Shown in pieces: positions 40,731 through 64,000 of a DNA stretch of 64,000 nucleotides (positions within the stretch are counted from its first letter, which is position 1; the number at the start of each line of letters is the position of its first letter). A program made the translations under genes and the position numbers. The DNA is taken from NCBI GenBank assembly GCA_009777725.1, contig WRLG01000011.1, positions 6,807-70,806 on the forward strand. The letters are read 5' to 3'. The notes beneath the pieces were generated by a model. It was not told the DNA's origin. It did no database searches and saw nothing but the letters and a program-made list of their open reading frames with translations. The DNA comes from Oscillospiraceae bacterium (GTDB lineage: Bacteria; Bacillota; Clostridia; Oscillospirales; Ruminococcaceae).

Positions 40731-40780
40731 CAATTAACAATTAATAATTAACAATTAACAATTGTCAATTATCAATTGTT
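40731..40780. repeat. intergenic heptamer repeat overlapping the 3' end of the upstream kinase gene
   Basis: CAATTAACAATTAATAATTAACAATTAACAATTGTCAATTATCAATTG. The last codons QLIIDNC* of the 40755.. ORF are encoded by it. Confidence 0.6.
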
Positions 40781-43823: not shown

Positions 43824-43959
43824 TCGTTTAATACCCCTTACTATAACTCTCATCACATACTTACCTCTAAACCTTATACAATATAAGTATACAATATTTT
43901 AAAAAATATTGCAAGTGCATAAACACAAAAAAACTAATTTGTAATATTTTAAAAAGCTA

Positions 43960-45747: not shown

Positions 45748-46023
45748 ATGTATAAAGAAACGCGGGGCGATTATCGGCGCGTGTTATCAAAATTTATAAA
45801 AAAAAAGCTATACCTGAACACCCACATGAATCTGACCGACAATACATTTCTTGAAATAGAAAATGTAAAGCGGATAACGGATTATAACGATGTCTGCATA
45901 CAGCTTCAGACCTCTACGCTCAGCTTAAGAATCTGGGGCAGTAATTTACAAATTTCCGATTATAATACAGATGGAATTGTTGTCAGAGGAGCATTTTCAT
46001 CGATTGAGTTTTTTCCCATTTGA
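45748..46023 (+). CDS. yqfC: sporulation protein YqfC (YabP family)
   Basis: YabP-like beta pattern FLEIENVKRITDYNDVCIQLQT...LRIWGSNLQISDYN...IVVRGAFSSIEF. Immediately precedes yqfD. Confidence 0.7.
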   Translation: MYKETRGDYRRVLSKFIKKKLYLNTHMNLTDNTFLEIENVKRITDYNDVCIQLQTSTLSLRIWGSNLQISDYNTDGIVVRGAFSSIEFFPI

Positions 46024-46052
46024 AACTGTAAATTATCTAAAGGAGAGCAAAT

Positions 46053-47356: not shown

Positions 47357-48244
47357 ATGGTAACTGAAACATTCCTCATATCAGTAAAAAACGACATCGG
47401 ATTTAGGCTTTTCTTCGCTGACGAACGGAACATTGAGTTTTTACAAGGGTTGTTAAAATCAATTCTGAAACTGGACGAGGGCGAATATGAGGTCATCGAA
47501 ATCCTCGACCCGCACTTGCTCCGCGAATTTCACGGGGATAAACTAGGCATTGTCGATGTAAAGGTAAAAACTAAAACAGGGAAAATTATCCATATAGAAA
47601 TCCAACTCAGAGTCCGCCCCGGCATGGAGGAGCGTATTATTTATTATGATGCTAAGCTAATCACAGAGCAAATCGGAAGCAGTGATAAATATAAAGACCT
47701 AAAACGAGTAATCAGCATTATAATCACCGAAGAAACCCTAATAAAAGCAAGCCCGCTTTACCATCATCGTTTCACCTTTTTCGACCCGAACGCAAACATC
47801 GAGCTATCCGACCTAATCGAAATCCACACTCTGGAACTGAACAAACTGCCGGATAATTTTGACGGCACGGAATTATGCGACTGGGCGAAATTTATCGCCG
47901 CAGGGAGCGAGGAGGAATTGGAAATGGTAGCAAACAGGAATACGCAAATTAGTAAGGCTGTAGTCAAGCTCCGCGAACTGTCGGCAGACGAAAAAGCGCG
48001 TGATATGTATGAACGCCAAGAAAAAGCAAGGCGGGACCATGAGTGGGCTATGGATTATGCTCGGGAAGTGGGTATTGAGGAGGGTAGGCAGGAAGGTCGG
48101 CAGGAGGGTATCAGGGAGGGTATCAAAGAGGGTATCAAGGAGGGTACGCAAAAACGCGAGCAGGAGCTTATTGAAAGCATGAAATTATCCGGCATGTCGG
48201 AAGCCGAAATTGATAGAATCCTTAACTTTAAACGCAAACATTGA
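47357..48244 (+). CDS. Rpn-family / PD-(D/E)XK putative transposase-nuclease
   Basis: GIVDVKVKTKTGKIIHIEIQL core and a C-terminal EGRQEGRQEGIREGIKEGIKEG repeat. Confidence 0.7.
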   Translation: MVTETFLISVKNDIGFRLFFADERNIEFLQGLLKSILKLDEGEYEVIEILDPHLLREFHGDKLGIVDVKVKTKTGKIIHIEIQLRVRPGMEERIIYYDAKLITEQIGSSDKYKDLKRVISIIITEETLIKASPLYHHRFTFFDPNANIELSDLIEIHTLELNKLPDNFDGTELCDWAKFIAAGSEEELEMVANRNTQISKAVVKLRELSADEKARDMYERQEKARRDHEWAMDYAREVGIEEGRQEGRQEGIREGIKEGIKEGTQKREQELIESMKLSGMSEAEIDRILNFKRKH

Positions 48245-48408: not shown

Positions 48409-48864
48409 CTATTCCTCCATCTGTTTCCCCAAAAACTGCGCCGCCGCCTGAATCAGATTTTGCTGAACTTCATTTGCGACTGCATCGTTATTGTTAGCCA
48501 GAAACGCAACCGCGCCCGTAACATCTCCCGACGAAAGAATCGGCGAACAGGCTATAGCGGGTCGGTCAATGCCCTCTACGGGGTAAACCTTAGCATCTGA
48601 GGAAGATGTTTTGAGGTAGTTTTTGCGGTTATCGAGATATTCCTCCAGTGCTTGTGAAATACGCCTTTCGCTGAACTCCTTCTTCTGCACCCCCGCAACG
48701 GCGACTACATGGTCGCGGTCAAAGACAACCGTGGGGCAGTTGGCAAGCTTAGTCATAACCTCGGCAACCTGCGCCGCCGAGCCTGCAAGCTCATTGATTG
48801 CGGAGTATTTTTTAAAAATTACCTCGCCATCGTTGCTTGTGTATATTTCTAAGGGGTCGCCCTC
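48409..48864 (-). pseudogene. spoVT: spoVT, 3' fragment (codons from ...EGDPLEIY to the natural stop), separated from its 5' part by the insertion
   Basis: EGDPLEIYTSNDGEVIFKKYSAINEL...VAVAG...GDVTGAVAFL...AAQFLGKQMEE is collinear with the SpoVT C-terminal 5/6. The upstream 32 codons of track ORF 48409..48960 are element/CRISPR sequence. Confidence 0.85.
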
Positions 48865-48937
48865 ATTGATAACATTGGAAGATAGATTTTGTTTAGGAAT
48901 ATCAGGGTTTGGGGAGAGGATATGTTGTACATAAATT

Positions 48938-49978
48938 ATTTCAACCCACACGCCCCACATAGGGGGCGACGTTGAGGCGTTGGAATATCCGAGTTTGTTA
49001 TGTTATTTCAATCCACGCCCCCCGCATAGGGGGCGACTTTGCGGAGAGAATGAGCCTTATTCATAATTTGGATTTCAATCCACGCCCCCCGCATAGGGGG
49101 CGACTGTTAATTTCGGGCACACTTTCATCTCACAGGCGATTTCAATCCACGCCCCCCGCATAGGGGGCGACATAAGTGATAACCGTTTCGCCTCTATCCA
49201 AGAAATTTCAATCCACGCCCCCCGCATAGGGGGCGACCTATGTTGGTTGACGAATTGAGAGCGTGGGGCATTTCAATCCACGCCCCCCGCATAGGGGGCG
49301 ACTTTTACTGGTGTATAACTGTTGCTCTGTGTTGTTTATTTCAATCCACGCCCCCCGCATAGGGGGCGACCCAAGACAAAATTGCGTGTGCGGGTTTACG
49401 AGGGAGCATTTCAATCCACGCCCCCCGCATAGGGGGCGACATTAAAGAGTTTGCGAGAGGGGGAAGCTTCGTTTTATTTCAATCCACGCCCCCCGCATAG
49501 GGGGCGACAAAAGCGGGTGATGATATGCAAATTGTAATAACTATTTCAATCCACGCCCCCCGCATAGGGGGCGACCTCTGCAAAAAGGATTAAAGGAACA
49601 CGGACTTGTTATTTCAATCCACGCCCCCCGCATAGGGGGCGACACAAGCCAAAACGCAAGCTGAAAAGGCACTACTCATTTCAATCCACGCCCCCCGCAT
49701 AGGGGGCGACGAGAGGGGCGACATATTATGGCAAAGTATGGTATATTTCAATCCACGCCCCCCGCATAGGGGGCGACGGGCTCGATATAGGTACGGGGTA
49801 GGTTTTGAACTTATTTCAATCCACGCCCCCCGCATAGGGGGCGACATAAAGCTGTTGAAAATCAACGGCTTTTATTTTATTTCAATCCACGCCCCCCGCA
49901 TAGGGGGCGACATTAGCCCGTCAAATACGGCAACGGTTGTGTTTCATTTCAATCCACGCCCCCCGCATAGGGGGCGAC
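48938..49978 (-). CRISPR. CRISPR array, 16 repeats (33 nt) and 15 spacers (32-37 nt), type I-C repeat
   Basis: The plus-strand repeat is ATTTCAATCCACGCCCCCCGCATAGGGGGCGAC, which is GTCGCCCCCTATGCGGGGGGCGTGGATTGAAAT in the transcribed sense. Repeat starts: 48938 (degenerate), 49005, 49072, 49139, 49205, 49270, 49338, 49408, 49476, 49543, 49611, 49678, 49745, 49813, 49879, 49946. Confidence 0.97.
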
Positions 49979-50169
49979 TACAAAATGTTACAAAAATTTA
50001 TTAAAATTACAGTATAAATTTGTCAAAAGTTATAAATTCACAGCAATTCTTTAATAAATAATCGGATTATTTTGCAAAAATAATTTGTTTTCGGCAAATT
50101 ATTTGGTGCGAATACTCAGGTGTTTTTATGTTTGCTAATGATTCGCACTCGTTATGCAATAAATTCTGT
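49979..50169 (-). promoter_or_regulatory. AT-rich CRISPR leader between cas2 and the first repeat
   Basis: 191-nt AT-rich non-coding stretch next to the non-degenerate end of the array. Contains hairpin GTGCGAAT...ATTCGCAC (about 50106-50148) after cas2. Confidence 0.55.
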
Positions 50170-50481
50170 TTATATTATTAGCGGCTCTGTTACATCGAAT
50201 GAGGCTTTTGCTCCGTAGTGTTCAACATTGTTTTTGTAATTATTTCCAAGTGAGTAAAATCTAAGGCTATCCTCATTCTTATCCATAATTTTGAGCAATG
50301 TTGCCTTAACCTTAACAAGCAATGCGGCATCGAGGTTACATTCAAATACGGAGTTTTGAACTCGTTGACCGTAATTTACGCAGGTTTTGGCTATTTGCCG
50401 CAGACGTTTACGCCCTGCGGCAGTTTCCGTGCTAACATCGTATGTGATTAACACAAGCAAACAAATGCACCTCATTTCCAT
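50170..50481 (-). CDS. cas2: CRISPR-associated endoribonuclease Cas2
   Basis: LVLITYDVS...RKRLRQIAKTCVNYGQRVQNSVFEC. Confidence 0.9.
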   Translation of the reverse strand: MEMRCICLLVLITYDVSTETAAGRKRLRQIAKTCVNYGQRVQNSVFECNLDAALLVKVKATLLKIMDKNEDSLRFYSLGNNYKNNVEHYGAKASFDVTEPLII

Positions 50482-51503
50482 AAAAACGGCGGATATTCGT
50501 CAAGGTCGCCCCGCAAAAATCTTGCAAGCAGTAAGGCTTGAACATAAGTCGCCAATCCCCATTCTATCTTTTCCTGCAAAAACGGGTGCGTTATTTGTTC
50601 CTGTTTCCGCTTTTGCCAAGCATTTAAAAATATTCGCCTTGCTTCATCTTTTATAAGGACAGAGCCGTTTTCCTTTGTTTGAAAGCCTTTTGAGTCTATT
50701 TGCCGCTTGTTAATCAGCGACAATACAAATCTGTCGGCAATAACCGCTCGAAATTCCTCCATTAAATCGAGAGCTAAAGATTTCCTCCCGGGTCTGTCAC
50801 GGTGGAGAAACCCCACAAATGGGTCAAGCCCTACCGAGCGAACCGCCGCCGCAACATCGTTGGCTAAAAGGGAGTACGCAAAAGACAGCAATGAATTCAC
50901 ATTGTCAAGCGGCGGGCGGCGGCTTCGTGTTTTAAAGAAGAAATCCTCTTTAGACTGCAAAATCAACTCATCAAATACGGAGAAATATCTTGTCGCCGCT
51001 TCACCCTCAATGCCTCGTATCGTTTCCAAGTTGCTTGCTTTCCGTAATGGTTTTACGGCATTTGCAATGCCGAGTGCCGCTGATTTAATTCGCTCGGAAT
51101 CAACTCTCATCTCATGGTCACGTAACGCTCGTTCGAGAATCCAACGGCTGTTATGAAGCTTTGCGGTTATTATATTTTTTGCGATTGCCGTGCTTTGGGT
51201 TAAATCATCTGCCATTCTGTACTGCGTTCTGCGAAGAACGACATTCCCCTTTTCTATCCCCGATACATCCGCCAAAAACCGCCCGTTTACTGTAAAAAAT
51301 GACAACGCAATATTTCGGTCGGCACACGCTCCCATCAAAGCGGGAGAAGCCCCCGTGTAACCGAAAGTGATAATTCCCTCTAAGTTATGAAGCGGAACAC
51401 GGAGCAAGGTTTCTTTATCTCGTAATACAACGACGTTTTCGCCGTCCAACGAAAGGTAAGCATCGGGCGTTGTTACATAAAGAGTATTCAGAAGTTTTCT
51501 CAG
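50472..51503 (-). CDS. cas1: CRISPR-associated endonuclease Cas1 (type I-C)
   Basis: The track ORF starts at 51449, but the conserved N-terminus (R)KLLNTLYVTTPDAYLSLDGENVVV continues upstream in frame. The only plausible initiator is CTG at 51503-51501, with GAGGAGGG upstream. Confidence 0.85.
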   Translation of the reverse strand: MRKLLNTLYVTTPDAYLSLDGENVVVLRDKETLLRVPLHNLEGIITFGYTGASPALMGACADRNIALSFFTVNGRFLADVSGIEKGNVVLRRTQYRMADDLTQSTAIAKNIITAKLHNSRWILERALRDHEMRVDSERIKSAALGIANAVKPLRKASNLETIRGIEGEAATRYFSVFDELILQSKEDFFFKTRSRRPPLDNVNSLLSFAYSLLANDVAAAVRSVGLDPFVGFLHRDRPGRKSLALDLMEEFRAVIADRFVLSLINKRQIDSKGFQTKENGSVLIKDEARRIFLNAWQKRKQEQITHPFLQEKIEWGLATYVQALLLARFLRGDLDEYPPFLWK

Positions 51504-52171
51504 AAAACACCCTCCTCTCGTAATGCGTGAGCAATATAATTTGCAACATTTTTAGTGTCCGTTACCTTAGGCAGGCATAACTCATACAGCGAACATTTCA
51601 AACAGTATTTTGATGATTTTACTTTCGGAGTATATCGGCGATTATAGTAATCGTGCATTTCGCAAACCATTTTTCGGGCTTTTTCACGCATTTCATCGGT
51701 TATATCAACATATTCCCGCCGCTTTGTTTCTCCGTAGTAAATACAACTTTTCTCAATTTTGCCGCAGTTCAGCATTTCTTCAAGACACATAGCTTGAAGA
51801 GTAAGCTGAAACCTGTCGCAATCATTGATTTTCGATTTACCTCGCTTATACTCTACTATCAGCGGAAACCACTTACCCGAACGTCCATGCAAACTAACTC
51901 CGCAAACATCATCTTGATGAAACTCAATAATATCGCATTGTCCCGAAACACCGAGTTCACTTGAATGAATCGGCATTTCTCGTGTTATAATCACATCTCC
52001 CCGCTTTTCGGCAAAAAACGGATCATGTGCTTTCTCGTGGATTACCCGCCCTTCGGCTGTCAGGACATTTTCCGCCCACAATTGCTCAATATGTATTAAC
52101 GCCCATTGTCGGCGGCAAAATGCAAAGTGTTGTATTCCCGATAGCTGCAAAAAATCATCTTCTGTATACAT
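51500..52171 (-). CDS. cas4: CRISPR-associated exonuclease Cas4
   Basis: RecB-like motifs, an N-terminal Cys (FCRRQWAL) and a C-terminal CLKCSLYELC cluster. Confidence 0.9.
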   Translation of the reverse strand: MYTEDDFLQLSGIQHFAFCRRQWALIHIEQLWAENVLTAEGRVIHEKAHDPFFAEKRGDVIITREMPIHSSELGVSGQCDIIEFHQDDVCGVSLHGRSGKWFPLIVEYKRGKSKINDCDRFQLTLQAMCLEEMLNCGKIEKSCIYYGETKRREYVDITDEMREKARKMVCEMHDYYNRRYTPKVKSSKYCLKCSLYELCLPKVTDTKNVANYIAHALREEGVF

Positions 52172-52173
52172 AC

Positions 52174-53004
52174 TTATTCACCATCGATTTCTTCCGTCTT
52201 AATTCCAATATCGTCAAGCGTATAAGTTCCGTCTGCATTGACATGAAGACTGCGGTGAACCTTTGCAGACGAGAGAGTTTTTTCTGTATGTGTCCACCAA
52301 ATTAGTTTTATAACTTCCATGCTCCCTGCAGGTCGAGCGGCAGATTCGTCATTCTCGAACATTTTAAGCATTGCCTCTTTCAGCGTTTTGGCATCATCAT
52401 CGGAGAACCCGGTCTTTTCGGAAAGCTGTTTGTTTATGCTACCGTATATAACGTAAATGCCTTTATCAACCCTGTGCTTATCTCCCATTGTATCCGACCC
52501 TTTAATTTCACCTCCTATATCGCCGGATGTACTTTTGGTTATTTTCAGATGAGTTATATCAATAGGTTCTTTTGAAAATGCACTCTGTATAGAAACCGGT
52601 CCGCGAACCGGAATAGATACGGATACTTGGTTTGGGCTTTTCCCGTCTTTCCAAGCAAGAACTGCACCAAAAGCTCGAACATCAAACCATTTTTCACAAG
52701 CAATTTTTGCTTTTTCGCTTGTCTTATCATCTTTGTTTGGTTTCCCCATTTCAGCTTCATAGCGTGTTTTTATGTCAGGATATTCATCTTTTTTATAATC
52801 GTCAGACTGAATGAGAATACTCTCTCCCATATCAAGAAGCCTGTTTCTGATTTTGCGTTTTAGGCATACGTCCGTCATTTCTCCATAACCATCGTAGTCT
52901 GTTCGGGGTCTGTTGCCGTTTAGCGGGTCGCCGTTGGGGTTAGCATTTCTTACCCCGATTATAATTGCGAAGTCAATTTTCTTAGTCAGCATCTTCTTGT
53001 TCAT
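52174..53004 (-). CDS. cas7: Cas7 (Csd2), type I-C
   Basis: IIGVRNANPNGDPLNGNRPR signature. ATG at 53004 is preceded by AAGGAGG. Confidence 0.85.
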   Translation of the reverse strand: MNKKMLTKKIDFAIIIGVRNANPNGDPLNGNRPRTDYDGYGEMTDVCLKRKIRNRLLDMGESILIQSDDYKKDEYPDIKTRYEAEMGKPNKDDKTSEKAKIACEKWFDVRAFGAVLAWKDGKSPNQVSVSIPVRGPVSIQSAFSKEPIDITHLKITKSTSGDIGGEIKGSDTMGDKHRVDKGIYVIYGSINKQLSEKTGFSDDDAKTLKEAMLKMFENDESAARPAGSMEVIKLIWWTHTEKTLSSAKVHRSLHVNADGTYTLDDIGIKTEEIDGE

Positions 53005-54898
53005 TTCCTTGTTCCTCCTTGATTCTTTTTTTGTTTTCCTCATATTCTTTATCCTTATCCGCATAATACTTGCGTTGTAAAGAATAACCAAATAGATATT
53101 TTACGGTTAATGGTTTGTCATACTCTTTGTCAGAAATATTGGGGTCAAACAGTAACTCTGTGATACTGTCTATTTCTTGCTGATACCATTCACGACCGCC
53201 GCTTTTCAAACTTACGAGAGCATAGTTTATCTTCTCTCGAATAATTCCCCAGGTGCGATAAGGATTATTTTTAAAAGCGGACATATACCTTATTGCATTT
53301 GTGGGACGGTCGTCTTTTTTCTTTTGCAAGTGCTTCCTTTCAATAGTATCAGCAACCGCAAGTAACCTCCCGAAAAGATAATCCTTATCCTTATTATTTC
53401 TGTCTAATCCCAATGCAAAAACCTCCTCTTTATAATAATATTTACGCCCCATAGCACAAACAACGCCGATATGATTCTCCCAATCGTCTTTATCACTCTC
53501 CCATTTTTTAATAAATGAAAACGGATTTGAAACCCTGTTTACTGCGGCGTTTAGCCAAGACTTGTCAAATTTCTCACTGTTTAAAATAAAACTCAAAATT
53601 CGCTCTCTCGCCTGTTTTTTGATTTTGTAATAGCTCTTTGCTTCACCCGGTGGTTTTTCACCGTATACCGCCGCAATAATCTTATCTGTACTCGGCGCGG
53701 AAATATGATAAATTGGGTTCCCGTTTTTATCATATATAAATTTTCCTTTCTTGCCCCTACTTCTAAAATTCCAACAACAAGTTTCATGCCAGTTTATAAT
53801 GCGTTCGATGTATTCGTTTTCGTCTAAATCACAGTAAAAAGTAATGGCAAGAGGGGCATCCCCCTCACTATCTGTTGCTAGTACAACAATTTTTCTGTCG
53901 GTTTGCGATTTTTTTACAGAACCGCATCCATTGAGCAACTCTCGAAGTTTATGGGCATAATCCCTATTTAATACCCCCTTTGTCTCAATAAGCTTGTCGC
54001 TATCTGTTTGCGGCTCCTCATTTCCAAAAAATTCACACGAATCTTTTTGAAAACTAATCGCTTCCTCGCCATTATCAATTGCCCACGCTACTATTGCTTG
54101 TGAACCACATTTAGATAAGTTTTGTGCCGATATTAAATACTTCAACATAGACATTGCGGCATGACTTGATTCCTTGCCAATTATGCGAGATTCAGTGGGA
54201 TTATTCGCAATTGGAAAAAATCGCCCCGAGTAGACAAAATTAGGGTCTTCTTTGTCAGACGGAAAGCAAATGAGCTTGCTATTTCCTGATATTTTTTGAC
54301 TATACTTAGAGATAGTTTTCACTTCTCCGGTTGCATAGCAAAGCCCCTTATTCTTATCCTCGCCCTCGTTTTCTTTACAGTATTTTATCCAAGCATCAAC
54401 AATGGTTTCATCTTTCCATAAATCCGATTCCAAGCCCAACCACACCGAAAACATAACAAAGGTTTTGGGTGATAAATTTTTAAACTTATATCCTTCCAAA
54501 TCGTCCAAAATAGTCTTCTTTGAAAGATACTGATATACAATTTTTACTTTATCATGAAAGTTACACCATTTTCTTAATTGTTCCATATAGGCATCGTAGT
54601 ATTTGTCATAATAAGCCAGATATTTCATTTGTTCGTGTAAGGGATATGGTGCAGAAGTTGAAGATGTGCGTGCTTCGGCTTCCGGAGTATACGGAATGAT
54701 AACTGAACCGGAAAATGGCTCTGCGTGTTTTAAATTGCCGCTTTTATCAAGCGTTATGCGTATACCATTACTATCTTTTGATTTTCCTATATTTTTAAAC
54801 AAAAAATATGGTGGCGGCAGTATGTTTTCATTATCATTAATCCCCCAAATATTTTCACAATTATAGTAAGTCTCAGCCAAATTACCAAACCAACTCAA
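52982..54898 (-). CDS. cas8c: Cas8c (Csd1), type I-C large subunit
   Basis: 638 aa, positioned between cas5 and cas7, with 4-nt overlap with cas5. The call rests on size and position; the sequence itself is only weakly recognisable. Confidence 0.8.
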
Positions 54899-55608
54899 TC
54901 AAAATCACCATCCCTTTCAGCTTGCTCTACAGTTTTGAAATTATCGCCCTCAACGAATCTCTTAAAATCATATTTGTCACCGTATTCTCTGACAGTACGG
55001 TACATAGGGTCAACAAATTCAATAATGCCGTTGTTCATTGACTGCTTGCAAAGTCTGACACCAAGTTCTTTTTTGCCTGTTTCATCAGGATAATCAAAGC
55101 TGTGAAACATAACTCCGAAATCAATAACGCCGTAATCATTGTAAGGGCTTGAATCTTCACCAAATATGCAGGGTTCGACATAGCCTTGACACTCTCTTGT
55201 GCCGAGGAAAATATCTCGCCGCCCGCCCTGTTCTACACAGCGTTTGGCAATATTATGATGTTTATGCTCGTTGCGGTCATTTAATAAATCCGGGCGTTGC
55301 TCGTTCCACTCGAAATGTGCCGTTACTTGATACTCAACATCTTTGAGATAAGTGTAATAAGCAAGGTCGTTTCCTCCGTTCATTTTAATAGGGCGAACGC
55401 CCTTGCTTTCTGTCTGAATTTTTTTCATAACCCGAATTTTATCAACATACCAAATAAAAGTCGGCTTCCAATATATGCCTTCGCAAATCCCCTTTAACGC
55501 TTGATATGTAGGAGTTTGGTAGCTGAATTTTTCGCCGCCCGGTCGGGTAATCGGGTCGGAAAAAAGTGCGTATCTGCCGTAAACCTTAAATTCTATTGAG
55601 TTTCGCAT
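54895..55608 (-). CDS. cas5: Cas5c (Cas5d), type I-C pre-crRNA-processing subunit
   Basis: [37 protein letters not shown]-terminus typical of Cas5d. Confidence 0.85.
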
Positions 55609-55620
55609 ATAATTCCCCTT

Positions 55621-57936
55621 TCACGCATTTAACAATTCGTGTTTTCCGTTAATATCTATCCCGAAATCACCACTATAAAAGCCCTTTGATAAAACCGTCA
55701 GTCCGTTATAGTTTATATTGTCAATTGCACCGTGTTTTTTAAATTTTTTAAGTTGTTCTTCATATAATGAAACGCTGTATTTACCAAGCTTTTTCAGTAA
55801 CTGTCGCTTTTCTTTTAAGCAATCGGTTGAGTTATATTGGTTTAGTAACGCTTCGCTGTCACCATAAGGAACAATAACGTTAATCCGCCCTTTTTCAATC
55901 ACATAAAACTCATCAGCGGCTGAACGCATTGCAAACGGCAACGCAATTTTTGTTTTATTCCCCCTGTTTTTATATGCACCAACGCCTTGTTTATTGCACG
56001 ACAGCAAATCGTAAATTGAGCCGTTATTTACGGGGTAATCCATTTTATTTTTTATATCCGTCTGACCGTAATAATATTCATAATATTGCTCTATCGTTAC
56101 GTTCTCTTCATCAAATAATCGCCTTGTAATATTTGCCCCCGCCTTTATATCGGGCAATCTGCTCAAATTTTCACCCTTGATATTTATCACATAAACGCTT
56201 TTAGCATCGTCATATTCACCATGACGGTTGCAACGCCCAGCCGCTTGAAAAATGCTGTCAAGCCCTGCAATGTCACGGATAACACATTCAAACGAAATAT
56301 CAACTCCGGCTTCTATAAGCTGCGTAGATACGCAAATTACAGACTCTTTGTTTTTCAATCGTTGCCTTAACTTTGCGATTACATCATCTCGATGAGCAGA
56401 ACACATATTTGTACTTAAATGCAAAACGGAGTTGATTTCTTTCAATTCCTCATAAACAGCTTTTGCGGCGGCTTTGGTGTTCACTATTACAAGAGTTGAA
56501 TTGTTATGCTTGTCCAAGATAAATTCCGATAATTCGGGGTATGTATAGCCTGCTCCGCTAAGCGAATTAATAATGTTATAACGCTTTGGCGGTTCAATAT
56601 AAGTGGTAAGCGATGGACTGTCCGAAAATAATATTTTCCTGAAAACTCTTTCAAATGGGGGTTGAGTGGCAGTGCAAAGTAAAATAGTGCTTTTGCAGAT
56701 TTTATTAATAAAATTCATAGCCGAATTAAAAATATGAGTGCATTTGAGCGGGATGCTTTGTGCTTCATCAAATATAATCACGCTTTTAGCCATGTTATGA
56801 AGCTTTCTCAAATCGGAGCCTTTTGCCGAAAATATGCTTTCCAAAAGTTGAACTTGCGTAGTAAGAATAATGGGTGCATCCCAGCGACCCATTTGCAATT
56901 TATAATGCTCCTCCTTGTCATCGTCTGGAAAGAAATCGGAATGATGTTCAAAGACCATGTCTTCATGGCATCCGAGCGTTCTGCGAATTTCAATTGCCGT
57001 TTGGCTTAAAATAGAAAGATACGGGATAACGTAAATGACCCTGTCTAAACCATGATGTTTAGCGTGTTCAAGTGCAAAACGCAAGCTCGATAAAGTCTTG
57101 CCGCCGCCCGTCGGCACTTCGAGTTTGTAAATGCCAACGCCTCGCAACCCGGCAATTTTGCAGTCTTCCGATACCTTTCGCCGCAGTTTACTCATAGCGG
57201 AATTTGAATCTGTTTCTGAAAACTCTGCAAGCCTTTTTTCAAGAGCATTTATTAATTCGCCCCAATTCGGCGTAGCAGGATGAGAATAGGGAACGCCGAT
57301 TTCAAATAAGTAAGCCCCTAATCTGTCAGCATCAACAAGGCATGAAAAAGCAAGCTTAGTTAGCATGGAAACAAAGAAAAACCTATCTAAGCTTAAATTT
57401 TCAGCTGTTTGTGTAATATTCAACAACTCATTTTTCAGAGCATTTATATCAACAGGCTCACCATTAAAATCAACATTCTCAGTTCTTGCTATTTTATCAT
57501 TAAGCGACGTTTCACCATCGGGAGAGATATTATCGTATAATCTGCCGTGATGAGAAGCGATAATATTAGCGAGTATTTCAGCGAACGGCGGGATTAAGAG
57601 AGTTTTGTCATATGCGTATTTCGCACCATATTCACTATGCGGCAAACGCTCCTTTTGCGGATTACTACTATGTAAATTTCTATGCAAATATTCTTGCCAT
57701 TCTTCAGACGACTTGCCTAAATCGTGCCAGAACCCTGCCAATCGCATAGTTTCGCCGATACCGCATTTATTACCGAATGAACATGCAATTTCAGATGTTT
57801 CCATCAAGTGATTTTTTAGTGACTGATTTCTACGTACCGATTTATCTAAATCGTACAAACTACGTGCCAAATAATCGTCCAACAATGTGTATTTTTGTTT
57901 TTGTTCAATATTTTTTGGCATTATGTTCATCCCCAA
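55621..57936 (-). CDS. cas3: Cas3 helicase-nuclease (HD + DEAD/DEAH helicase)
   Basis: HD motif FWHDLGK, Walker A PTGGGKT, DEAQ box IIFDEAQ. Confidence 0.9.
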   Translation of the reverse strand: MGMNIMPKNIEQKQKYTLLDDYLARSLYDLDKSVRRNQSLKNHLMETSEIACSFGNKCGIGETMRLAGFWHDLGKSSEEWQEYLHRNLHSSNPQKERLPHSEYGAKYAYDKTLLIPPFAEILANIIASHHGRLYDNISPDGETSLNDKIARTENVDFNGEPVDINALKNELLNITQTAENLSLDRFFFVSMLTKLAFSCLVDADRLGAYLFEIGVPYSHPATPNWGELINALEKRLAEFSETDSNSAMSKLRRKVSEDCKIAGLRGVGIYKLEVPTGGGKTLSSLRFALEHAKHHGLDRVIYVIPYLSILSQTAIEIRRTLGCHEDMVFEHHSDFFPDDDKEEHYKLQMGRWDAPIILTTQVQLLESIFSAKGSDLRKLHNMAKSVIIFDEAQSIPLKCTHIFNSAMNFINKICKSTILLCTATQPPFERVFRKILFSDSPSLTTYIEPPKRYNIINSLSGAGYTYPELSEFILDKHNNSTLVIVNTKAAAKAVYEELKEINSVLHLSTNMCSAHRDDVIAKLRQRLKNKESVICVSTQLIEAGVDISFECVIRDIAGLDSIFQAAGRCNRHGEYDDAKSVYVINIKGENLSRLPDIKAGANITRRLFDEENVTIEQYYEYYYGQTDIKNKMDYPVNNGSIYDLLSCNKQGVGAYKNRGNKTKIALPFAMRSAADEFYVIEKGRINVIVPYGDSEALLNQYNSTDCLKEKRQLLKKLGKYSVSLYEEQLKKFKKHGAIDNINYNGLTVLSKGFYSGDFGIDINGKHELLNA

Positions 57937-58111
57937 CTTTAAGTTCTTATAGATAATTATACTATATAAAGTTATATAATGTCAATACTTTTGCCGAAAA
58001 TTTACAGGACTTAGAAATTGCAGAAGAAGAAGTCGCACAGTCGGTGACAATAAGAATAAATCTCACAAAAAATGGTAAAACTAAACTTCAGAGGGGGAAT
58101 TGCTTATAAAA

Positions 58112-58321
58112 ATGAATATCAAAGATTCTGACCATATAGCAGAAATATGGCTGACAAACGAAGAACAGCAAAATGAAGAGTTACGACAATCGCTGGAACT
58201 GCTTTATGAGAAGTATAAAGCCCAAAAATATAAAATCTGCATATTCTGCTCCGGCAAAAGCGACTTGACAGAAAACACCGCAAGGCTTTTGTTTTGCAAT
58301 AAGGCTTTAAACACAGTATAA
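58112..58321 (+). CDS. small hypothetical protein (69 aa) on the element
   Basis: MNIKDSDHIAEIWLTNEEQQNEELRQSLELLYEKYKAQKYKICIFCSG... From memory it resembles small proteins seen on Firmicute mobile elements. Function unknown. Confidence 0.4.
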   Translation: MNIKDSDHIAEIWLTNEEQQNEELRQSLELLYEKYKAQKYKICIFCSGKSDLTENTARLLFCNKALNTV

Positions 58322-59539
58322 TCCTATAGTCAAAATTATCCTGTCTTTTTCAATTTTTTCCGTAAAAACAGGTTCTGCCCAGCCTTGCTCCTCGCAAACA
58401 CGCTGAATAAGCGGTATCCCGCTTCCCAATCGTTCCCCAATATCGAGGAGACTAAACATTTTCATAATAACGGAATTGCGAGGAGATGACACACCGCCGC
58501 TCAAGGCCTCATCAATACTGACACGGAAATTACCCGGGTTTTCAAATATAATTCCATCAAGATTATTTCGTATAACAAGACCACGCTCACCATAAAAATC
58601 AGCGTTAATAAGGCAATTCGCCAACGCTTCCCGCAACGCCTTGTGAACAGGCGTATCATCAATACGAGTCAAACCGTCCGCCATTTTAAAAGGCGTTTTT
58701 ATTTTTGGGTTTTGAATGAGCTTATTATATGCCTTAAAAAAGAAGTCGTTAAGATTACCGCTCCACTCGCCCGAGGAGGAGGTAATTCTATCGGTAAAGC
58801 GAATATCAGGGTCAAAATGTTCCTGATAATCAAGAAAGTAATACGGATATTCACGCAATATCTCATTCTCAAAGCCAAACATCAGCAAACCGGCGGCAGT
58901 AGGATACCTCTTACCGTCTTCGCCGATGCCTACTGCCCCAAGCTTTTGCAAAAATTCAACGTCCTCCAACACTTCCCAAACATGACCGGGGCGGGTCACT
59001 TTCATACGGTTGCGATAACGCCGCAAGCTGTCATAATCAAACACGTCAAGCAACATTTTGTCAAGTACGAGCATATCCTGCGTTTTAACTCCGTTATCCC
59101 GAATCATAGCTGATACCATTTCCTTAGAGCAACGATAATCGCCCTCGCCGTTTCTGCGATAAGTTCCTGTAAACGGATTGTCATTCAGATAAATGGGTTT
59201 AAAGTTTCTATCCGCCCGGGGAATGTCTATGACTATAACGCTTTTGCCGGCAACACGTTCAACCCTAACCCGCTTGTCTGTCAGAATGTTGATATTGACT
59301 TTTTTAGTGTTATTGACGGTATTCCAAAAGTCGGCAATCAGCCTATCGGGGTTTTCAAGCCCGGCAATTTTCAGCGATTTATCGGAAAGTTCTTCAACGC
59401 CGAGCAGAATAACGCCGCCGTTTGTATTGGCGAACGAAGAATAGGTTTCCCATATGCTGTTCGGAAGTCCTCCCTCCGCTTTCTTTGCTTCAAGTCGGTT
59501 GCCCTCGCAATATTTATCAAGTTCATTTAATTTCAACAT
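58307..59539 (-). CDS. AlbA_2/Schlafen-type divergent AAA domain plus HATPase_c_4-like protein (putative regulator; COG2865-like)
   Basis: N-terminal EGNRLEAKKAEGGLPNSIWETYSSFANTNGGVILLGV... and C-terminal ALREALANCLINADF...GSGIPLI. The usual C-terminal HTH appears to be absent. Confidence 0.65.
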   Translation of the reverse strand: MLKLNELDKYCEGNRLEAKKAEGGLPNSIWETYSSFANTNGGVILLGVEELSDKSLKIAGLENPDRLIADFWNTVNNTKKVNINILTDKRVRVERVAGKSVIVIDIPRADRNFKPIYLNDNPFTGTYRRNGEGDYRCSKEMVSAMIRDNGVKTQDMLVLDKMLLDVFDYDSLRRYRNRMKVTRPGHVWEVLEDVEFLQKLGAVGIGEDGKRYPTAAGLLMFGFENEILREYPYYFLDYQEHFDPDIRFTDRITSSSGEWSGNLNDFFFKAYNKLIQNPKIKTPFKMADGLTRIDDTPVHKALREALANCLINADFYGERGLVIRNNLDGIIFENPGNFRVSIDEALSGGVSSPRNSVIMKMFSLLDIGERLGSGIPLIQRVCEEQGWAEPVFTEKIEKDRIILTIGLYCV

Positions 59540-59651
59540 AATACCCTCCCGCTACTTTAAACATATTATCATTATACTATACTATGGATATATTTTCAAT
59601 AGATAAGTAGGATTATTTCCTAATTGAGCAAAAATTTAATGAAATAACCCC

Positions 59652-59680
59652 TTGACAAAACATCAAAGATATGTTACAAT
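59652..59680 (+). promoter_or_regulatory. consensus sigma-A promoter of the recombinase gene
   Basis: TTGACA (59652-59657), 17-nt spacer, TACAAT (59675-59680); AAGGAG RBS 8 nt before the ATG at 59714. Confidence 0.55.
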
Positions 59681-59713
59681 ATTACCAACATATACATAAA
59701 AGGAGAAAACAAT

Positions 59714-61645
59714 ATGGAAACAGAACAACCCACCCGCATTGCCGCCTACTGCCGCATATCCGTAGACGAGGAAATAGATAGGGAAAACACAAGTATTGAG
59801 AACCAAAAATCTATTATTACCGACTTTGTCGCCCACAAATTTCCAAATTCCCAACTTGATTTTTGTGAGGACAGGGACAGGAGCGGTTATACATTTGAGC
59901 AAAGAGAAGGCTATATGAAAATCCGCCCCCTGCTGATGAGAGGCGATTATGACATACTTATAGTCAAGGATTTCTCAAGGTTTTCACGGCGTAACAGCAA
60001 AGGGCTTGTCGAGCTTGAGGACTTGCGAGATGCCGGCGTTCGCATTATAGCAATCGGTGATAATATTGACTACCCGACTTATGACGACTGGACGGCGATT
60101 CAGTTTCGTTTTCTTATTAATGAAATGCCTGTTACTGATACGAGCAAAAAAGTCAAGTCCGTTATCAAACGCCGCCAGAGCGAGGGCAAATGGATTTGTG
60201 CCGTGCCGTATGGGTATGTGATTACCAACAGTAAAACTATGGCTTTTCAAATTGATGAGCCTGCTGCCGAAGTTGTCCGCGAGATATTTAAGCTGTATAA
60301 CGACGGCTGGGGCTACAAGAAAATTGCGAATCACCTGACAGATAAGCATATCCCAACGCCGAGAATGGCAGAGAAGATGCGTAAAGAAGCGGCAGGTGAG
60401 GACTGTAATATCAAAACAAAAGAAATATGGAGTATAATTACAATATCAACAATTTTGCAGAATGATTTTTATATCGGAACTTTGCGGCAGGGCAAATACC
60501 GCCGCAAAAAAATCAACGGCGGCGATGTTAAAGAGGATTGCGAAAACCATATCGTCTTTGAAAATAATCACGAGCCGATTATTGATTACCGCACTTTTGC
60601 TATAACCAAAGAGCAACTTAAAAAACGAACAAGCACCAACTATCGGGGTGTGAAAAAATTTGAGAATGTTTACTCCGGTTATCTGTTCTGCGGGGATTGC
60701 GGCTCGCCGTTGTTCTCAATGAGTCGCCGTGATTTAGCCCCCGCCTACACCTGCGGTACGTATCATAACAGAGGAACAAAAGGCTGCACTTCTCATCATA
60801 CACGGGTTGATACCCTTGATAAACTACTGAAATCCTATGTGAAAACAGTCAAGGAAAACTCCGCCGAGATGCTTAACAAGCTTAACGAAGCACTCAAAGA
60901 CGAAACAGCCCATACAAAAGAAACCACCGACACAATAAAAATCATAGAGGAGCAAATTGATAATGCAAAGACCGAAATGAAAATGCTTGCCAAGCAAAAG
61001 CTGAAAGACATTATGAGAAACCCGAACAAAGAGGAAATGCTTGAAGAAACCTATGACGAAATGCTTGATGAACTGACCAACAGAATAGACGGCTTGCAAA
61101 ATCAACTGACTCTGACCGCAAACCGCCGCAACACAGTAATCCGAGTAAACCGAACAGCCAAAACCGCACTTGATATTTTCGATACTATACTGAACAAAGA
61201 AAAACTCGACAAATGCGATATTGAGCTAATCATAGATAAAATCATCATCTATGAAGACCACTTGGAAATCCACCTCAAATCCGACATAGACCATCTGCTG
61301 AAATGCGGTACGCTTGCTCATAGCGAAGAAACTGCCCCGCTTTTAAGCATTGATGAGATTGATAAGGAGGAAATCGTAAATTTTGAGCAAGGCACTATAA
61401 ATATCTCACCCTATGTAAACCGCATTGTCCAGTCTGCCCCTAATCGGAAAGACAAGGTTTATAGTGTCAATGTTATCAGCAATGGGTCACCCTCCCTAAT
61501 CCTCATAGTGCGCCTTATTTCCTTAGGGATAACAACCCTTCCTAAATCGTCAATTCTCCTGACAATTCCGGTAGCTTTCATGCTTATATTCCTCCATATC
61601 AGAGCTAAGCGGTATTTAAAACGAGGATTTAGGTTTGAGGCTTGA
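59714..61645 (+). CDS. large serine recombinase
   Basis: Resolvase catalytic domain (AAYCRISVDEE...RDRSGYT...VKDFSRFSRR), recombinase domain (PYGY), zinc ribbon (CGDCGSP...CGTYH...CTSH) and a long coiled coil. The ORF reads through the right junction at 61484-61494. Confidence 0.9.
   Translation: METEQPTRIAAYCRISVDEEIDRENTSIENQKSIITDFVAHKFPNSQLDFCEDRDRSGYTFEQREGYMKIRPLLMRGDYDILIVKDFSRFSRRNSKGLVELEDLRDAGVRIIAIGDNIDYPTYDDWTAIQFRFLINEMPVTDTSKKVKSVIKRRQSEGKWICAVPYGYVITNSKTMAFQIDEPAAEVVREIFKLYNDGWGYKKIANHLTDKHIPTPRMAEKMRKEAAGEDCNIKTKEIWSIITISTILQNDFYIGTLRQGKYRRKKINGGDVKEDCENHIVFENNHEPIIDYRTFAITKEQLKKRTSTNYRGVKKFENVYSGYLFCGDCGSPLFSMSRRDLAPAYTCGTYHNRGTKGCTSHHTRVDTLDKLLKSYVKTVKENSAEMLNKLNEALKDETAHTKETTDTIKIIEEQIDNAKTEMKMLAKQKLKDIMRNPNKEEMLEETYDEMLDELTNRIDGLQNQLTLTANRRNTVIRVNRTAKTALDIFDTILNKEKLDKCDIELIIDKIIIYEDHLEIHLKSDIDHLLKCGTLAHSEETAPLLSIDEIDKEEIVNFEQGTINISPYVNRIVQSAPNRKDKVYSVNVISNGSPSLILIVRLISLGITTLPKSSILLTIPVAFMLIFLHIRAKRYLKRGFRFEA
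61483..61581 (-). pseudogene. spoVT: spoVT, 5' fragment (Met1 to ...REGDP) with its RBS
   Basis: ATG at 61581 with GGAGG upstream. MKATGIVRRIDDLGRVVIPKEIRRTMRIREGDP is then followed by 7 element-encoded codons (LLITLTL) and a stop at 61459. Confidence 0.85.
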
Positions 61646-61715
61646 GGAATGGAAGAATTAACGTAAGGATACAATTAACCTCTGAATCCCCTCAAGCCTT
61701 AAACCTAAATCCTCG
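61622..61715. repeat. long inverted repeat (26-bp arms, 42-nt loop)
   Basis: CGAGGATTTAGGTTTGAGGCTTGAGG (61622-61647) and CCTCAAGCCTTAAACCTAAATCCTCG (61690-61715), with 25/26 positions complementary. Confidence 0.7.
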
Positions 61716-61963
61716 CGTAACTGCCTTGCTCCATAATTTTATTAAAAATGTAATAATAGTGTTTGTACGGCAGGCAGGAATATACATTCATAATTATTTT
61801 TATTATTTGCTGACAATATTGATAAATTATGACATAATTTTCGCTTGACTTTGTCGGTTTTTCGTGGTATAATAGGGGTTAGCCGCTTCGGTAGGGGTTT
61901 CGTCTTTAGGCGGGTTAAATCGCCTGTCGGCGAAATTGAGCATATAGTATGGAGAGATTTATT

Positions 61964-62728
61964 ATGACTGTTTGGGAAATGGTAAAAAAGGCTGTTGAGG
62001 ATGTTACTTGTCAATCCGAAAATCCTGTTGTTGCCGAAAAGCAAATTAAAGAATATATACTGAATCATTATCCCGGAACTAACCCGGCGACAATAATCAA
62101 TCAAATAATGTTTTGTTCTGTCAATCGACAATCTCGTGTAAACGACCCTAAAAACCAAAGGCAAATAATTTGTAACAGAGAATTTGACTTTTTGTACAGA
62201 CCGAATATTAATACTCCTGAAGTTGTCATGTACAACCCTAATGAACACGGACAATGGGAAATTGCTCTTTCAAATGATGCAAAATTCATTGTTCGCAGAA
62301 CAGATGATGAAACAATCATTACCGACCATGGCATAGCTGAAAATAATGATTTAGCTTTTGCACTTGAAGCTCATTTAAGAGATTTTATCTCTAAGAATTT
62401 ATCAACAATAGGGAATTTGACGTTGTTTGAAAACGGAGTTGAATATTCTACTGATGTTGGCAATATTGACATTCTAACTAAAAACGAAAATGATGAATTT
62501 GTTGTCATAGAATTGAAGTTGCATAGGGGAGAAGATGCCGCTTTGGGACAAGTTCAACGATATATGGGGTGGATTAAGGAAAATCTTGCGGATAATGGCA
62601 ACGTATATGGGATGATAATTGGTAAGTCTATAACCAAAAAATTAAAGTATGCTGTATCTGTAGCACAAAACATTACATTATTTGAATATTCTATGACCTT
62701 TTCTGTTGCTGAAGCAATGTTAAGTTAA
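61964..62728 (+). CDS. PD-(D/E)XK nuclease-like protein (NucS/DUF91-type C-domain with an Mrr_N-like N-domain), tentative
   Basis: C-terminal GNIDILTKNENDEFVVIELKLHRGEDAALGQVQRYMGW (D...ExK). ATG at 61964 with GGAGAG 7 nt upstream. Confidence 0.55.
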   Translation: MTVWEMVKKAVEDVTCQSENPVVAEKQIKEYILNHYPGTNPATIINQIMFCSVNRQSRVNDPKNQRQIICNREFDFLYRPNINTPEVVMYNPNEHGQWEIALSNDAKFIVRRTDDETIITDHGIAENNDLAFALEAHLRDFISKNLSTIGNLTLFENGVEYSTDVGNIDILTKNENDEFVVIELKLHRGEDAALGQVQRYMGWIKENLADNGNVYGMIIGKSITKKLKYAVSVAQNITLFEYSMTFSVAEAMLS

Positions 62729-62732
62729 AATA

Positions 62733-62765
62733 AAAACGGACACCGTTTAAAGTGTCTGTTTTTCA
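62733..62765 (+). terminator. rho-independent terminator
   Basis: ACGGACAC-(8 nt)-GTGTCTGT followed by TTTTT. Confidence 0.6.
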
Positions 62766-62870
62766 TTTATTTAACCACCGACAACGGCGAAGAGCTTCCT
62801 AAGCTCAATTGGTATACCAATCACTTCTATTAGTTGCATGTTCACAGAGATTAGGTATTCGGGTGAGCAT

Positions 62871-63953: not shown

Positions 63954-64000
63954 ATGTAGCTACTGCAGCTGCTAACAATGCAGGGGCGACAACCTGCCGC

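Follow-up and report, generated by a model that had tools for sequence, protein, structure and literature searches.

A serine recombinase element carrying a CRISPR-Cas system of type I-C interrupts the sporulation gene spoVT and belongs to a clostridial family using the same attachment site

We analyzed a stretch of 64,000 nucleotides (nt) from an Oscillospiraceae bacterium (contig WRLG01000011.1; the whole stretch is called the window below), in which the coding sequence of a sporulation gene, spoVT, is cut between codons 31 and 32 by an element that carries a large serine recombinase (LSR) and a CRISPR-Cas system. Window coordinates are used throughout unless a locus with an L number is named, and the features are collected in table 1. 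The minus-strand open reading frame (ORF) at 61581..61459 encodes MKATGIVRRIDDLGRVVIPKEIRRTMRIREGDP, followed by LLITLTL and a stop, and the minus-strand ORF at 48960..48409 (183 amino acids, aa) becomes EGDPLEIYTS...GKQMEE at residue 33. In silico removal of 48859-61488 (12,630 bp) leaves exactly one full-length SpoVT ORF of 180 aa.

The joined protein aligns along its whole length (residues 2-179 of 180) with the NCBIfam model TIGR02851 (spore_V_T), although the score of 202.9 bits falls short of the curated cut-off, 235.9. The Pfam domains MazE/AbrB and SpoVT_C are both recognized above their cut-offs, and intact 180-aa Oscillospiraceae proteins that are named SpoVT in their source records share 89% identity with the joined protein over 100% of its length. 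The 33-codon 5' part encodes a protein segment identical to that of intact orthologues, and no second spoVT-like sequence was found within the window. A preliminary description of this DNA, made from the letters alone, had placed the two ORFs at these positions, joined them into a full-length SpoVT and attributed their separation to a single clean insertion; all of this agrees with our results. It had also called the insert clearly more AT-rich than its flanks, and here the difference turned out to be small (G+C of 41.1% inside versus 43.1% outside, only about 2 points lower). Pairwise comparison of the window spoVT with its nearest intact counterpart (P0002) gave a saturated synonymous rate (dS), so that the ratio of nonsynonymous to synonymous rates (dN/dS) is uninformative on the time since insertion.

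Separate metagenome contigs span each of the two junctions, and the window contig is therefore not chimeric at either of them, which the preliminary description had named as a way in which its reading could fail. Contig L001, 100% identical to the window, covers the cas genes, the array, the spoVT 3' part and the flank, that is, the attR side. On the attL side, cas3, the LSR and the spoVT 5' part are present together with flanking DNA on contigs L093 and L094; L093 is 100% identical to the window, and L094, which comes from another assembly and probably represents the same strain, is identical over 56693-64000 and differs only in a patch within cas3. The patch itself (L094:9-610, corresponding to window 56089-56692 in the C-terminal half of cas3) holds 87 differences in 600 nt at the contig end, and reflects either a population variant of cas3 or an assembly collapse.

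The recombinase contains the Resolvase (PF00239), Recombinase (PF07508) and Zn_ribbon_recom (PF13408) domains, all above their cut-offs, and the catalytic motifs YCRISVDE, DRSGYT and KDFSRFSRR can be read directly in its sequence. Its best match in PDB is SprA of SPbeta (E = 4e-17), and its matches to the NCBIfam models CcrB and XisF lie far below the cut-offs; by these comparisons it is only distantly related to known LSRs. The preliminary description was right to place a recombinase at the right junction, but the gene does more than abut it: the ORF crosses the junction, and its last ~50 residues are antisense to the spoVT 5' part.

The attachment sites are recognizable. Un-integrated attP sites were detected in three relatives (L010, L018 and L031), for example GTCAATAACATCAGT GAAGGT GA CCGCCC GCTGATAACATTGAC, which is symmetric about a GA dinucleotide (15+6+2+6+15). 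The cleavage position was placed from this dyad symmetry, and the crossover dinucleotide takes its G from GGN (Gly31) and its A from GAC (Asp32). The attP of the window element as reconstructed, GTCAATGTTATCAGC AATGGG TC GCCCTC ATTGATAACATTGGA, has the same symmetry, with TC at its centre in the sense of the LSR, and its P' arm resembles the P' arms of the free attP sites in L010 and L018. Both junctions are exactly complementary halves of one gene and one palindromic attP, and recombination between attL and attR would restore spoVT exactly, giving the predicted empty site GCGCACTATGAGGATTAGGGAGGGTGACCCCTTAGAAATATACACAAGCA and the predicted circle junction GTGTCAATGTTATCAGCAATGGGTCGCCCTCATTGATAACATTGGAAGATAG. 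The shared stretch GAGGGYGACCC is not as such the crossover core, the dyad centre being the GA dinucleotide. In the orientation of the preliminary description, its ambiguous Y and R resolve to T in the empty site and G in the circle junction, and the T/C difference between the junctions is explained by the crossover at GA, with T coming from the host arm and C from the element arm.

In serine integrases such as Bxb1 and phiC31, the central dinucleotide alone is established to set the polarity of integration. Because its centre is TC rather than GA, the window element is reversed, with the LSR converging on the 5' part of spoVT. Elements in the usual orientation have the LSR beside the spoVT 3' part, with the LSR reading frame continuing into that part. 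The reverse orientation recurs in other members: the proteins P0156, P0170, P0182, P0190, P0204 and P0235 end in ...GSPSRIRIVRRISLGITILPKSSILRTIPVAF..., which is antisense to the spoVT 5' part, and this 5' part is intact opposite the reverse-orientation LSRs of L104 and L105.

One attP arm (GTCAATGTTATCAG, encoding VNVIS) lies inside the 3' coding end of the LSR gene itself, and integration therefore always swaps the C-terminus of the recombinase. Un-integrated LSRs end in a native tail of ~25 aa whose protein sequence is conserved (..LL..L.L..RLYIK or ..[ED]RFC.G...F.ER..; L010:~4061-4200, L018:~6817-6960; P0161, P0217). In the window, the circle junction that would encode this tail is 61466-61488 joined to 48859-48940. 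The tail is replaced upon integration, and in L023 it ends up fused to the 33-aa N-terminal fragment of SpoVT; the function of the recombinase may differ between the free and integrated states. Integration-dependent immunity in the mycobacteriophages BPs and Brujita follows a similar principle, in that attP lies inside a phage gene and integration alters the C-terminus of its protein. Here attP lies in the 3' end of the LSR gene and integration exchanges the native tail for SpoVT_C or for an antisense tail, an effect read from sequence, whereas the affected gene of BPs and Brujita is the repressor and their recombinase is a tyrosine integrase.

To place the window element among its relatives, we surveyed 80 species-representative genome loci with a related LSR. 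The LSR ORF continues in frame into the spoVT 3' part in 67 of the 80, reading ...VNVISN and then GDPLEIY... across the junction. The resulting LSR-SpoVT_C chimeras are ~720 aa long, with the domain order Resolvase-Recombinase-Zn_ribbon-SpoVT_C (loci L011-L089, e.g., L019:10001-12136 and L022:10001-12175; proteins P0122-P0240), and SpoVT_C (PF15714) is present on ~95 of the 120 best LSR homologues, which are 56-79% identical to the window LSR. Public annotation of these chimeras varies among "stage V sporulation protein T", "SpoVT C-terminal domain-containing protein" and "recombinase family protein". Truncated SpoVT proteins in databases likewise have an unrelated start and become native from the same GDP (P0079/P0080 in L002; P0116 in L004), and their upstream DNA differs from that of the window. 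An entire element can be seen in L023, where 11.6 kb separate the 3' part of spoVT from the 5' part upstream of it. Among the hosts are Ruminococcus, Anaerotruncus, Oscillospiraceae, Acutalibacteraceae, Lachnospiraceae, Acetatifactor and Borkfalkia, and cultured carriers include Anaerotruncus massiliensis AT3, Ruminococcus sp. Marseille-P6503, Hominimerdicola aceti, Eubacterium sp. MSJ-21 and Ruminococcus sp. YRD2003. The insertion in spoVT is not a one-off: the same dinucleotide is targeted across a large family, and the window element belongs to this LSR family of Oscillospirales and Lachnospirales, all of which use this attB. There is hardly any doubt that the insertion was made by the LSR at the family-wide attB, in reverse with a TC centre, with its parts intact and a CRISPR-Cas system as cargo.

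Two further observations concern the site itself. In L053 (3443-3470), L058 (2899-2989) and L077 (5600-5605), the 3' end of the LSR gene is frameshifted or truncated and still adjoins the spoVT 3' part; these are probably immobilized copies in which spoVT would be permanently split. In L095-L098, which represent the intact spoVT of the P0002 species, the target codons read GAA GGA GAT CCT (GGAGATCC) instead of GGTGACCC, so that the GA centre is kept and both flanking arms are altered. Such a site might be a poor attB, that is, a resistant allele. P0002 was considered as an empty-site reference and set aside, since its neighbors differ (dpaA-dpaB-spoVT) and its site reads GGAGATCC.

The order of genes within the insert, from left to right on the plus strand, is array, leader, cas2-cas1-cas4-cas7-cas8c-cas5-cas3, 69-aa ORF, AlbA_2 gene and LSR (table 1), as the preliminary description had listed it. 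The cas genes form one operon with an adjacent array and no cas6, as expected for type I-C, and the I-C-specific NCBIfam models for Cas5c, Cas7/Csd2 and Cas1c all score above cut-off. The payload is thus a complete type I-C system, again as first described, and the 12.6-kb element contains no phage genes. The Cas_Csd1 Pfam match for cas8c was obtained on the identical metagenome contig. The longest cas7 and cas8c ORFs share 110 nt (52982-53091), and the true start of cas7 is probably internal, the metagenome gene call being 289 aa and starting 48 nt further downstream. The degenerate CRISPR repeat is the one farthest from cas2 and nearest to the spoVT junction. Spacers gave no match beyond 13-14 nt in the window or in ~90 related loci, and IMG/VR contained no exact match to either of two spacers; an array directed at rival spoVT elements therefore has no support and was rejected as an explanation. 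The AlbA_2 gene, which has no PADLOC match, sits between the small ORF and the recombinase, which adjoin each other in relatives. Searches with NCBIfam, Pfam and PADLOC detected no relaxase or mobilization gene in the window element, and Rfam gave no match anywhere in the window.

Table 1. Features of the interrupted spoVT locus, in window coordinates
Feature	Position	Strand	Remarks
spoVT 3' part (SpoVT_C/GAF-like domain, codons 32-180), with the crossover GA at 48858-48857	48409..48858	-	
attR: host B' arm, crossover, element P' arm	48838..48879	.	plus-strand TC at 48857-48858; P' arm GCCCTCATTGATAACATTGGA, 48859-48879
CRISPR array with 16 repeats (33 nt each) and 15 spacers (32-37 nt)	48938..49978	-	
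AT-rich leader, between cas2 and array	49979..50169	-	
cas2	50170..50481	-	Pfam CRISPR_Cas2, 2e-25
cas1, type I-C	50472..51449	-	TIGR03640 cas1_DVULG, 473.9 bits, above cut-off
cas4	51500..52171	-	TIGR00372, 114.8 bits
cas7 (Csd2)	52174..53091	-	TIGR02589, 291.5 bits
cas8c (Csd1)	52982..54898	-	TIGR01863 over full length, 210 bits, just under cut-off of 218.65
cas5c	54895..55608	-	TIGR01876, 252.4 bits
cas3, HD nuclease and helicase	55621..57936	-	TIGR01587 and TIGR01596, both above cut-off
Housekeeping-type promoter match for cas operon, TTGACA-18-TATAAT, 12/12	57956..57985	-	consensus match only
GAATA-N15-GGTAAAACTA motif at -58 of small ORF	58054..58083	+	similar motif at same distance before homologues elsewhere
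69-aa ORF (73 aa from TTG at 58100), candidate recombination directionality factor	58112..58321	+	synteny
AlbA_2 (Schlafen-type) and HATPase_c_4 gene	58307..59539	-	Pfam; phrog_12156
Housekeeping-type promoter match for LSR, TTGACA-17-TACAAT with TG	59652..59680	+	consensus match only
LSR, integrated form, 643 aa	59714..61645	+	residues to ~591 recombinase, remainder antisense of spoVT 5' part
attL: element P arm, crossover, host B arm	61466..61508	.	P arm GTCAATGTTATCAGCAATGGG, 61466-61486, within LSR ORF; plus-strand TC at 61487-61488
spoVT 5' part	61459..61581	-	33 native codons (61581 through GA 61488-61487 to 61483), then 7 element-encoded codons and stop

Comparison with the relatives revealed that the cargo is variable. 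Using tblastn with the seven Cas proteins, no cas genes were found within 10 kb upstream of the LSR in the 80 genome loci, nor in L092, L102, L104, L105 and L106. Only two neighbors of the LSR are recurrent: small-ORF homologues and, in fewer loci, an AAA_25 ATPase. L023 carries a hydrolase, a GH16 protein, an AraC regulator and a transporter; L092, whose LSR is 79% identical to that of the window, carries a DpnII restriction-modification pair; L105 carries a dUTPase and Lar; and other relatives contain a type I HsdR, a DpdF-like helicase or AAA_14/DUF4143 ATPases. Some members have mobilization genes (a MobA/VirD2 relaxase in L081, NikA/MobC in L065). Among 50,697 phage records the best matches to the LSR were short unannotated faecal fragments, with no characterized phage, and only three relatives of the LSR were found in IMG/VR; a phage origin was rejected for lack of a characterized phage with this LSR and the scarcity of viral matches. 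From the absent phage links and the variable cargo, we therefore consider the family to be integrative, partly mobilizable elements, often with defence cargo. Most of these relatives are mobilizable elements with variable cargo rather than prophage remnants.

Several relatives bear traces of mobility. The rebuilt intact SpoVT of the Anaerotruncus locus L019 (WP_121586895.1) exists as an exact sequence on 296 contigs, and that of the L030 species on 623 contigs; filled and empty alleles with an identical protein therefore coexist in two species. Precise excision can be reproduced in silico for the window, and for these two relatives the exact rebuilt proteins occur in other strains. Free forms of the LSR are frequent (e.g., P0161, with 217 member sequences). 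For the window copy, excision is inferred, because neither its empty site nor its circle junction was found in the collections searched.

The spoVT 3' part has remained under strong purifying selection in filled loci. The dN/dS of SpoVT_C is 0.00-0.08 across all filled pairs with measurable dS, and 0.00-0.06 in those pairs in which the LSR and the host part are about equally diverged (L048/L051 with dS ~1, L037/38/41, L043/49, L078/80 and L066/70); for L048/L051 it is ~0.02 at dS ~1. Equal divergence of LSR and host part is consistent with their joint descent. Such low ratios are unlike those of a permanently dead gene, and they would fit alike a gene rebuilt by excision, frequent turnover by way of empty alleles, or a chimera with a function of its own. 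With an intact LSR, two intact att sites and the conserved small ORF in place, the window element is, fairly safely, still excisable; taken together, it is likely that the element can still leave and that spoVT is still in use.

The preliminary description compared the locus to skin and SPbeta. The architecture supports this comparison, since a sporulation gene is split, an LSR lies at the edge and the reading frame is restored, but the mechanism does not follow, spoVT being a forespore factor. The known intervening elements (skin, SPbeta, vfbin, vrin, gin and yin) are located in the mother-cell genes sigK, spsM, spoVFB, spoVR, gerE and yabG. In Bacillus subtilis, spoVT is transcribed in the forespore. 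It is likewise a sigmaF/sigmaG-dependent forespore gene in Clostridium difficile (PMC3789822, PMC3738446, PMC7438776), where a spoVT mutant forms no heat-resistant spores (PMC3789822, PMC3738446). Judged from this orthologue literature, spoVT is not expressed in the mother cell as the targets of intervening elements are. Excision of skin and SPbeta takes place in the terminally differentiated mother cell and hence causes no germ-line loss (PMC4191935, PMC5025042). Because spoVT is made in the forespore, the skin mechanism is not simply transferable: if the gene is forespore-transcribed here as well, useful excision must hit the forespore chromosome, which is the germ line.

Known systems resemble the window element in different respects. 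Skin of B. subtilis and skinCd of C. difficile (CD1231 with the directionality factor CD1234) share with it a split sporulation regulator, an LSR at the edge and precise excision; in skinCd the recombinase is constitutive and a sigma-controlled small directionality factor sets the timing (PMC5025042), and a CRISPR array is carried (PMC4556805). They differ in that sigK is a mother-cell gene and that they contain prophage remnants with at most an orphan array, whereas the window element has a full cas operon. SPbeta in spsM (SprA/SprB) likewise has an LSR with a highly symmetric attP inside a coding sequence, and its directionality factor is under sporulation sigma control (PMC5499854); it differs as an active 134-kb phage in a mother-cell gene with an AA centre, compared with 12.6 kb and no phage genes here. 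The gin element in gerE of B. cereus ATCC 10987 is also non-prophage, has serine recombinases and is excised during sporulation (PMC5595907), but it interrupts a mother-cell regulator, is 28.6 kb long, has three recombinases and has no reported defence cargo. Complete CRISPR-Cas modules are found on integrative and conjugative elements (type I-C in Pseudomonas aeruginosa; PMC4669384) and on Vibrio elements (PMC6360697), which have not been reported inside a developmental gene that needs excision. Thus LSR intervening elements in sporulation genes, non-prophage examples of them, arrays in skin and CRISPR-Cas on integrative and conjugative elements or plasmids are already known. We found no publication in the literature searched that describes spoVT as a target, in line with what the preliminary description had supposed. 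As far as our searches reach, the use of spoVT and of a forespore gene as target and the breadth of the family with its LSR-SpoVT_C chimeras are new, and so are the natural GA/TC polarity variants and the carriage of a whole cas operon by an intervening element of this kind.

A candidate for the control of excision is the 69-aa ORF. Its family is kept just upstream of the recombinase in most relatives, with homologues of ~70-90 aa that share the motif WLTN.E...KY...VF.SG..DL...T..LL.HN. Strong housekeeping-type promoter matches precede the LSR and the cas operon, and none above 9/12 precedes the small ORF. The consensus of the forespore factor sigmaF is G[C/T]ATA at -35, a 15-bp spacer and GGnnAnAHT at -10. 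According to Saujet et al., the C. difficile sigmaF consensus is very similar to that of B. subtilis, with a conserved G upstream of -10 (PMC3789822). A search for the pattern G[ACT]AT[AG]-N15-GG..A upstream of small-ORF homologues recovered it at a distance of 48-62 nt in 9 of 36 distinct loci; shuffles gave an expectation of 0.6, and 1.4% of random 110-nt windows contained it. Loci fetched later had the motif in two of three distinct cases: L104 (GAATA-N14-GGTTAGACTT) and L105 (GAATA-N15-GGCTAAACTT, with an identical copy in L106), and it is absent upstream of the small ORF in L102/L103. In L104 and L105, GAATA-N15-CAGACAATA was also observed ahead of spoVT.

A possible mechanism can be proposed from these data. 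The LSR would be made constitutively from its housekeeping-type promoter, and the 69-aa ORF would encode a directionality factor that is switched on by a forespore sigma factor through the sigmaF-like promoter. The element would then leave the forespore chromosome shortly before spoVT is needed, the non-replicating circle would be retained in the non-dividing spore, and with the directionality factor no longer present it would re-integrate at germination; loss of some copies would give rise to the empty alleles. Reversible excision from a regulatory gene in a surviving cell, followed by re-integration, is known from the Listeria prophage phi10403S in comK (active lysogeny). It resembles the behavior proposed here for the forespore and differs in being a functional prophage that is triggered by the mammalian phagosome and has no link to sporulation. 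In sporulating bacteria, a constitutive recombinase with a sigma-controlled directionality factor has its precedent in skinCd (PMC5025042), and re-integration upon withdrawal of the directionality factor in SPbeta, where this factor is SprB (PMC5499854). As a whole, the chain of a constitutive LSR, a forespore-controlled small ORF, excision in the forespore, a circle in the spore and re-integration at germination is our preferred model, put forward tentatively as one that is conceivable and falls somewhat short of being probable.

Several observations weigh against this model. An exact search of a collection of 15 billion proteins did not contain the rebuilt SpoVT of the window element, and a 29-nt degenerate pattern for attB, attP, attL and attR retrieved only the attR of two other elements from metagenome contigs and nothing from viral contigs. 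The small ORF had no match in Pfam, PHROGs, PADLOC, a PDB profile search or a word-indexed protein search, its single-sequence structure model has a mean confidence score (pLDDT) of 57, and it is synteny that makes it a candidate directionality factor. The GAATA-N15 motif, which we take to be sigmaF-like by its consensus, is limited to about a quarter of the loci, and sigmaF/sigmaG patterns, tried as a positive control on the promoter of spoVT itself, failed to match in the window and in L095-L098. Lineages that often pass through an empty state, or a role of the LSR-SpoVT_C chimera, could likewise account for the purifying selection on SpoVT_C. Because the window element has no relaxase or replication gene, a copy lost from the spore could not easily return. 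In addition, the type strain Anaerotruncus massiliensis AT3, whose site is filled (L019, NZ_LT962687.1), was described as non-spore-forming, as were its element-free relatives in the same table (PMC6403417).

Among the other explanations, the one that survives best is that the family consists of ordinary integrative (mobilizable) elements for which spoVT is only a conserved landing site. The gene would be off while filled, without complete sporulation, excision would be sporadic or linked to transfer, and frequent passage of lineages through the empty state would keep the gene intact. The relaxase, MobC/NikA and AAA_25 genes and the varied accessory cargo of relatives are what such elements would have; empty and filled alleles within species and common free attP forms agree with it, as does the lack of any excision product of the window copy in the protein and metagenome collections, and the filled, reportedly non-spore-forming AT3 is a weak fit. 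On the other hand, the co-divergence of LSR and host part up to dS ~1 with dN/dS ~0.02 (L048/L051) indicates long residence without loss of the gene, a conserved forespore-type motif before the small ORF would be unexpected for a transfer-linked switch, and the window host keeps other sporulation genes intact, spoIVB (36754-38013) and yabP/yqfC-yqfD (45748-47225) among them. We regard a mere landing site as a serious possibility, although on balance not the likely one.

A function of the LSR-SpoVT_C chimera, or of the change of C-terminus itself, is unlikely. In this case the GAF-like SpoVT_C would regulate the integrated recombinase, and this, not the rebuilding of spoVT, would explain the conservation of the 3' part. 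In its favor are the in-frame fusion in 67 of the 80 loci across 56-79% LSR identity, a SpoVT_C dN/dS as low as that of the LSR, and the fact that free forms have another native tail, which is conserved (..LL..L.L..RLYIK). However, the frame is fixed by the crossover position in both genes, so that the fusion follows from descent without selection; reverse-orientation members without a fusion, including the window element, keep both spoVT parts intact; and the spoVT 5' part is conserved too.

Quite improbable is a cycle of the skin/SPbeta type, in which excision in the mother cell rebuilds spoVT and the forespore keeps the integrated copy. The non-prophage gin in gerE (PMC5595907) is a precedent for an element of this kind, but spoVT is transcribed by forespore sigma factors and acts in the forespore in C. 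difficile, and that compartment would receive no SpoVT from a gene restored in the mother-cell chromosome alone. It is very unlikely that the element is an immobilized fossil and spoVT permanently dead in this organism: no empty site or attP of the window element was found in the collections searched, it has no transfer genes, and decayed LSR 3' ends do occur beside spoVT in L053, L058 and L077, but the LSR ORF, its catalytic motifs, the att arms and both spoVT parts are free of frameshifts and stops, the protein of the 5' part is identical to intact orthologues, and the cas operon and array are complete. An assembly artefact joining unrelated DNA at one junction, conceivable for a metagenome-assembled genome, is practically negligible given the contigs that span the junctions (L001 for attR; L093 and L094 for attL), the exact complementarity of the junctions and the same design in dozens of genomes.

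Outside the element, the minus strand at 38025-43856 encodes a pair of neighboring large hybrid histidine kinases (HisKA-HATPase_c-Response_reg-Hpt; the second also contains several PAS domains), and spoIVB and then yabP/yqfC-yqfD lie downstream of them on the opposite strand. Beside the spoVT promoter, the gene at 61949-62728 (plus strand) encodes DUF7669 and NucS_C/PD-(D/E)XK domains and matches the PADLOC candidate defence family PDC-S02 (E = 3e-27), and a PD-(D/E)XK_2 "transposase" (Rpn-like; 47357-48244, plus strand) is directly beside the spoVT 3' end. Thus, spoVT is flanked here by nuclease-type genes, whereas in the nearest relative with an intact gene (L095) it follows dpaA-dpaB. A 26-nt inverted repeat (61622-61647 / 61690-61715), whose arms are 96% complementary and separated by 42 nt, occupies the expected promoter region of spoVT, 40-130 nt upstream of the start codon, and the extended LSR ORF ends inside the repeat.

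The misnaming of the chimeras has a practical consequence, since spoVT could be scored as absent or be mis-annotated, which can distort surveys of sporulation genes. The family also represents a set of related LSRs with a known attB, a known attP and natural GA/TC polarity variants, and defence cargo (CRISPR-Cas, type I and type II restriction, DpdF-like helicases) travels on these spoVT elements. A broader reading would be that a widespread family of serine recombinase elements has made spoVT of gut and rumen Clostridia dependent on programmed germ-line excision by a sigmaF-driven factor, with a circle that waits in the dormant spore, re-integration at germination and a swap of the LSR tail, and that the gene offers defence cargo, in the window a whole CRISPR-Cas locus, a protected niche; this generalization is possible but rather doubtful. 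The sporulation gene rearrangements described in the literature searched are those of the mother cell, and the death of that cell is the accepted reason why the elements escape loss. A split forespore gene breaks this logic. Either carriers forgo sporulation while the site is filled, which would place a switch on a trait central to the transmission of gut anaerobes, or a cycle of germ-line excision and re-integration takes place, of a kind not yet described for spores. This question can be tested directly, since members of the family are common in genomes of Ruminococcus, Anaerotruncus, Oscillospiraceae and Lachnospiraceae, and several of the carriers have been isolated in culture.

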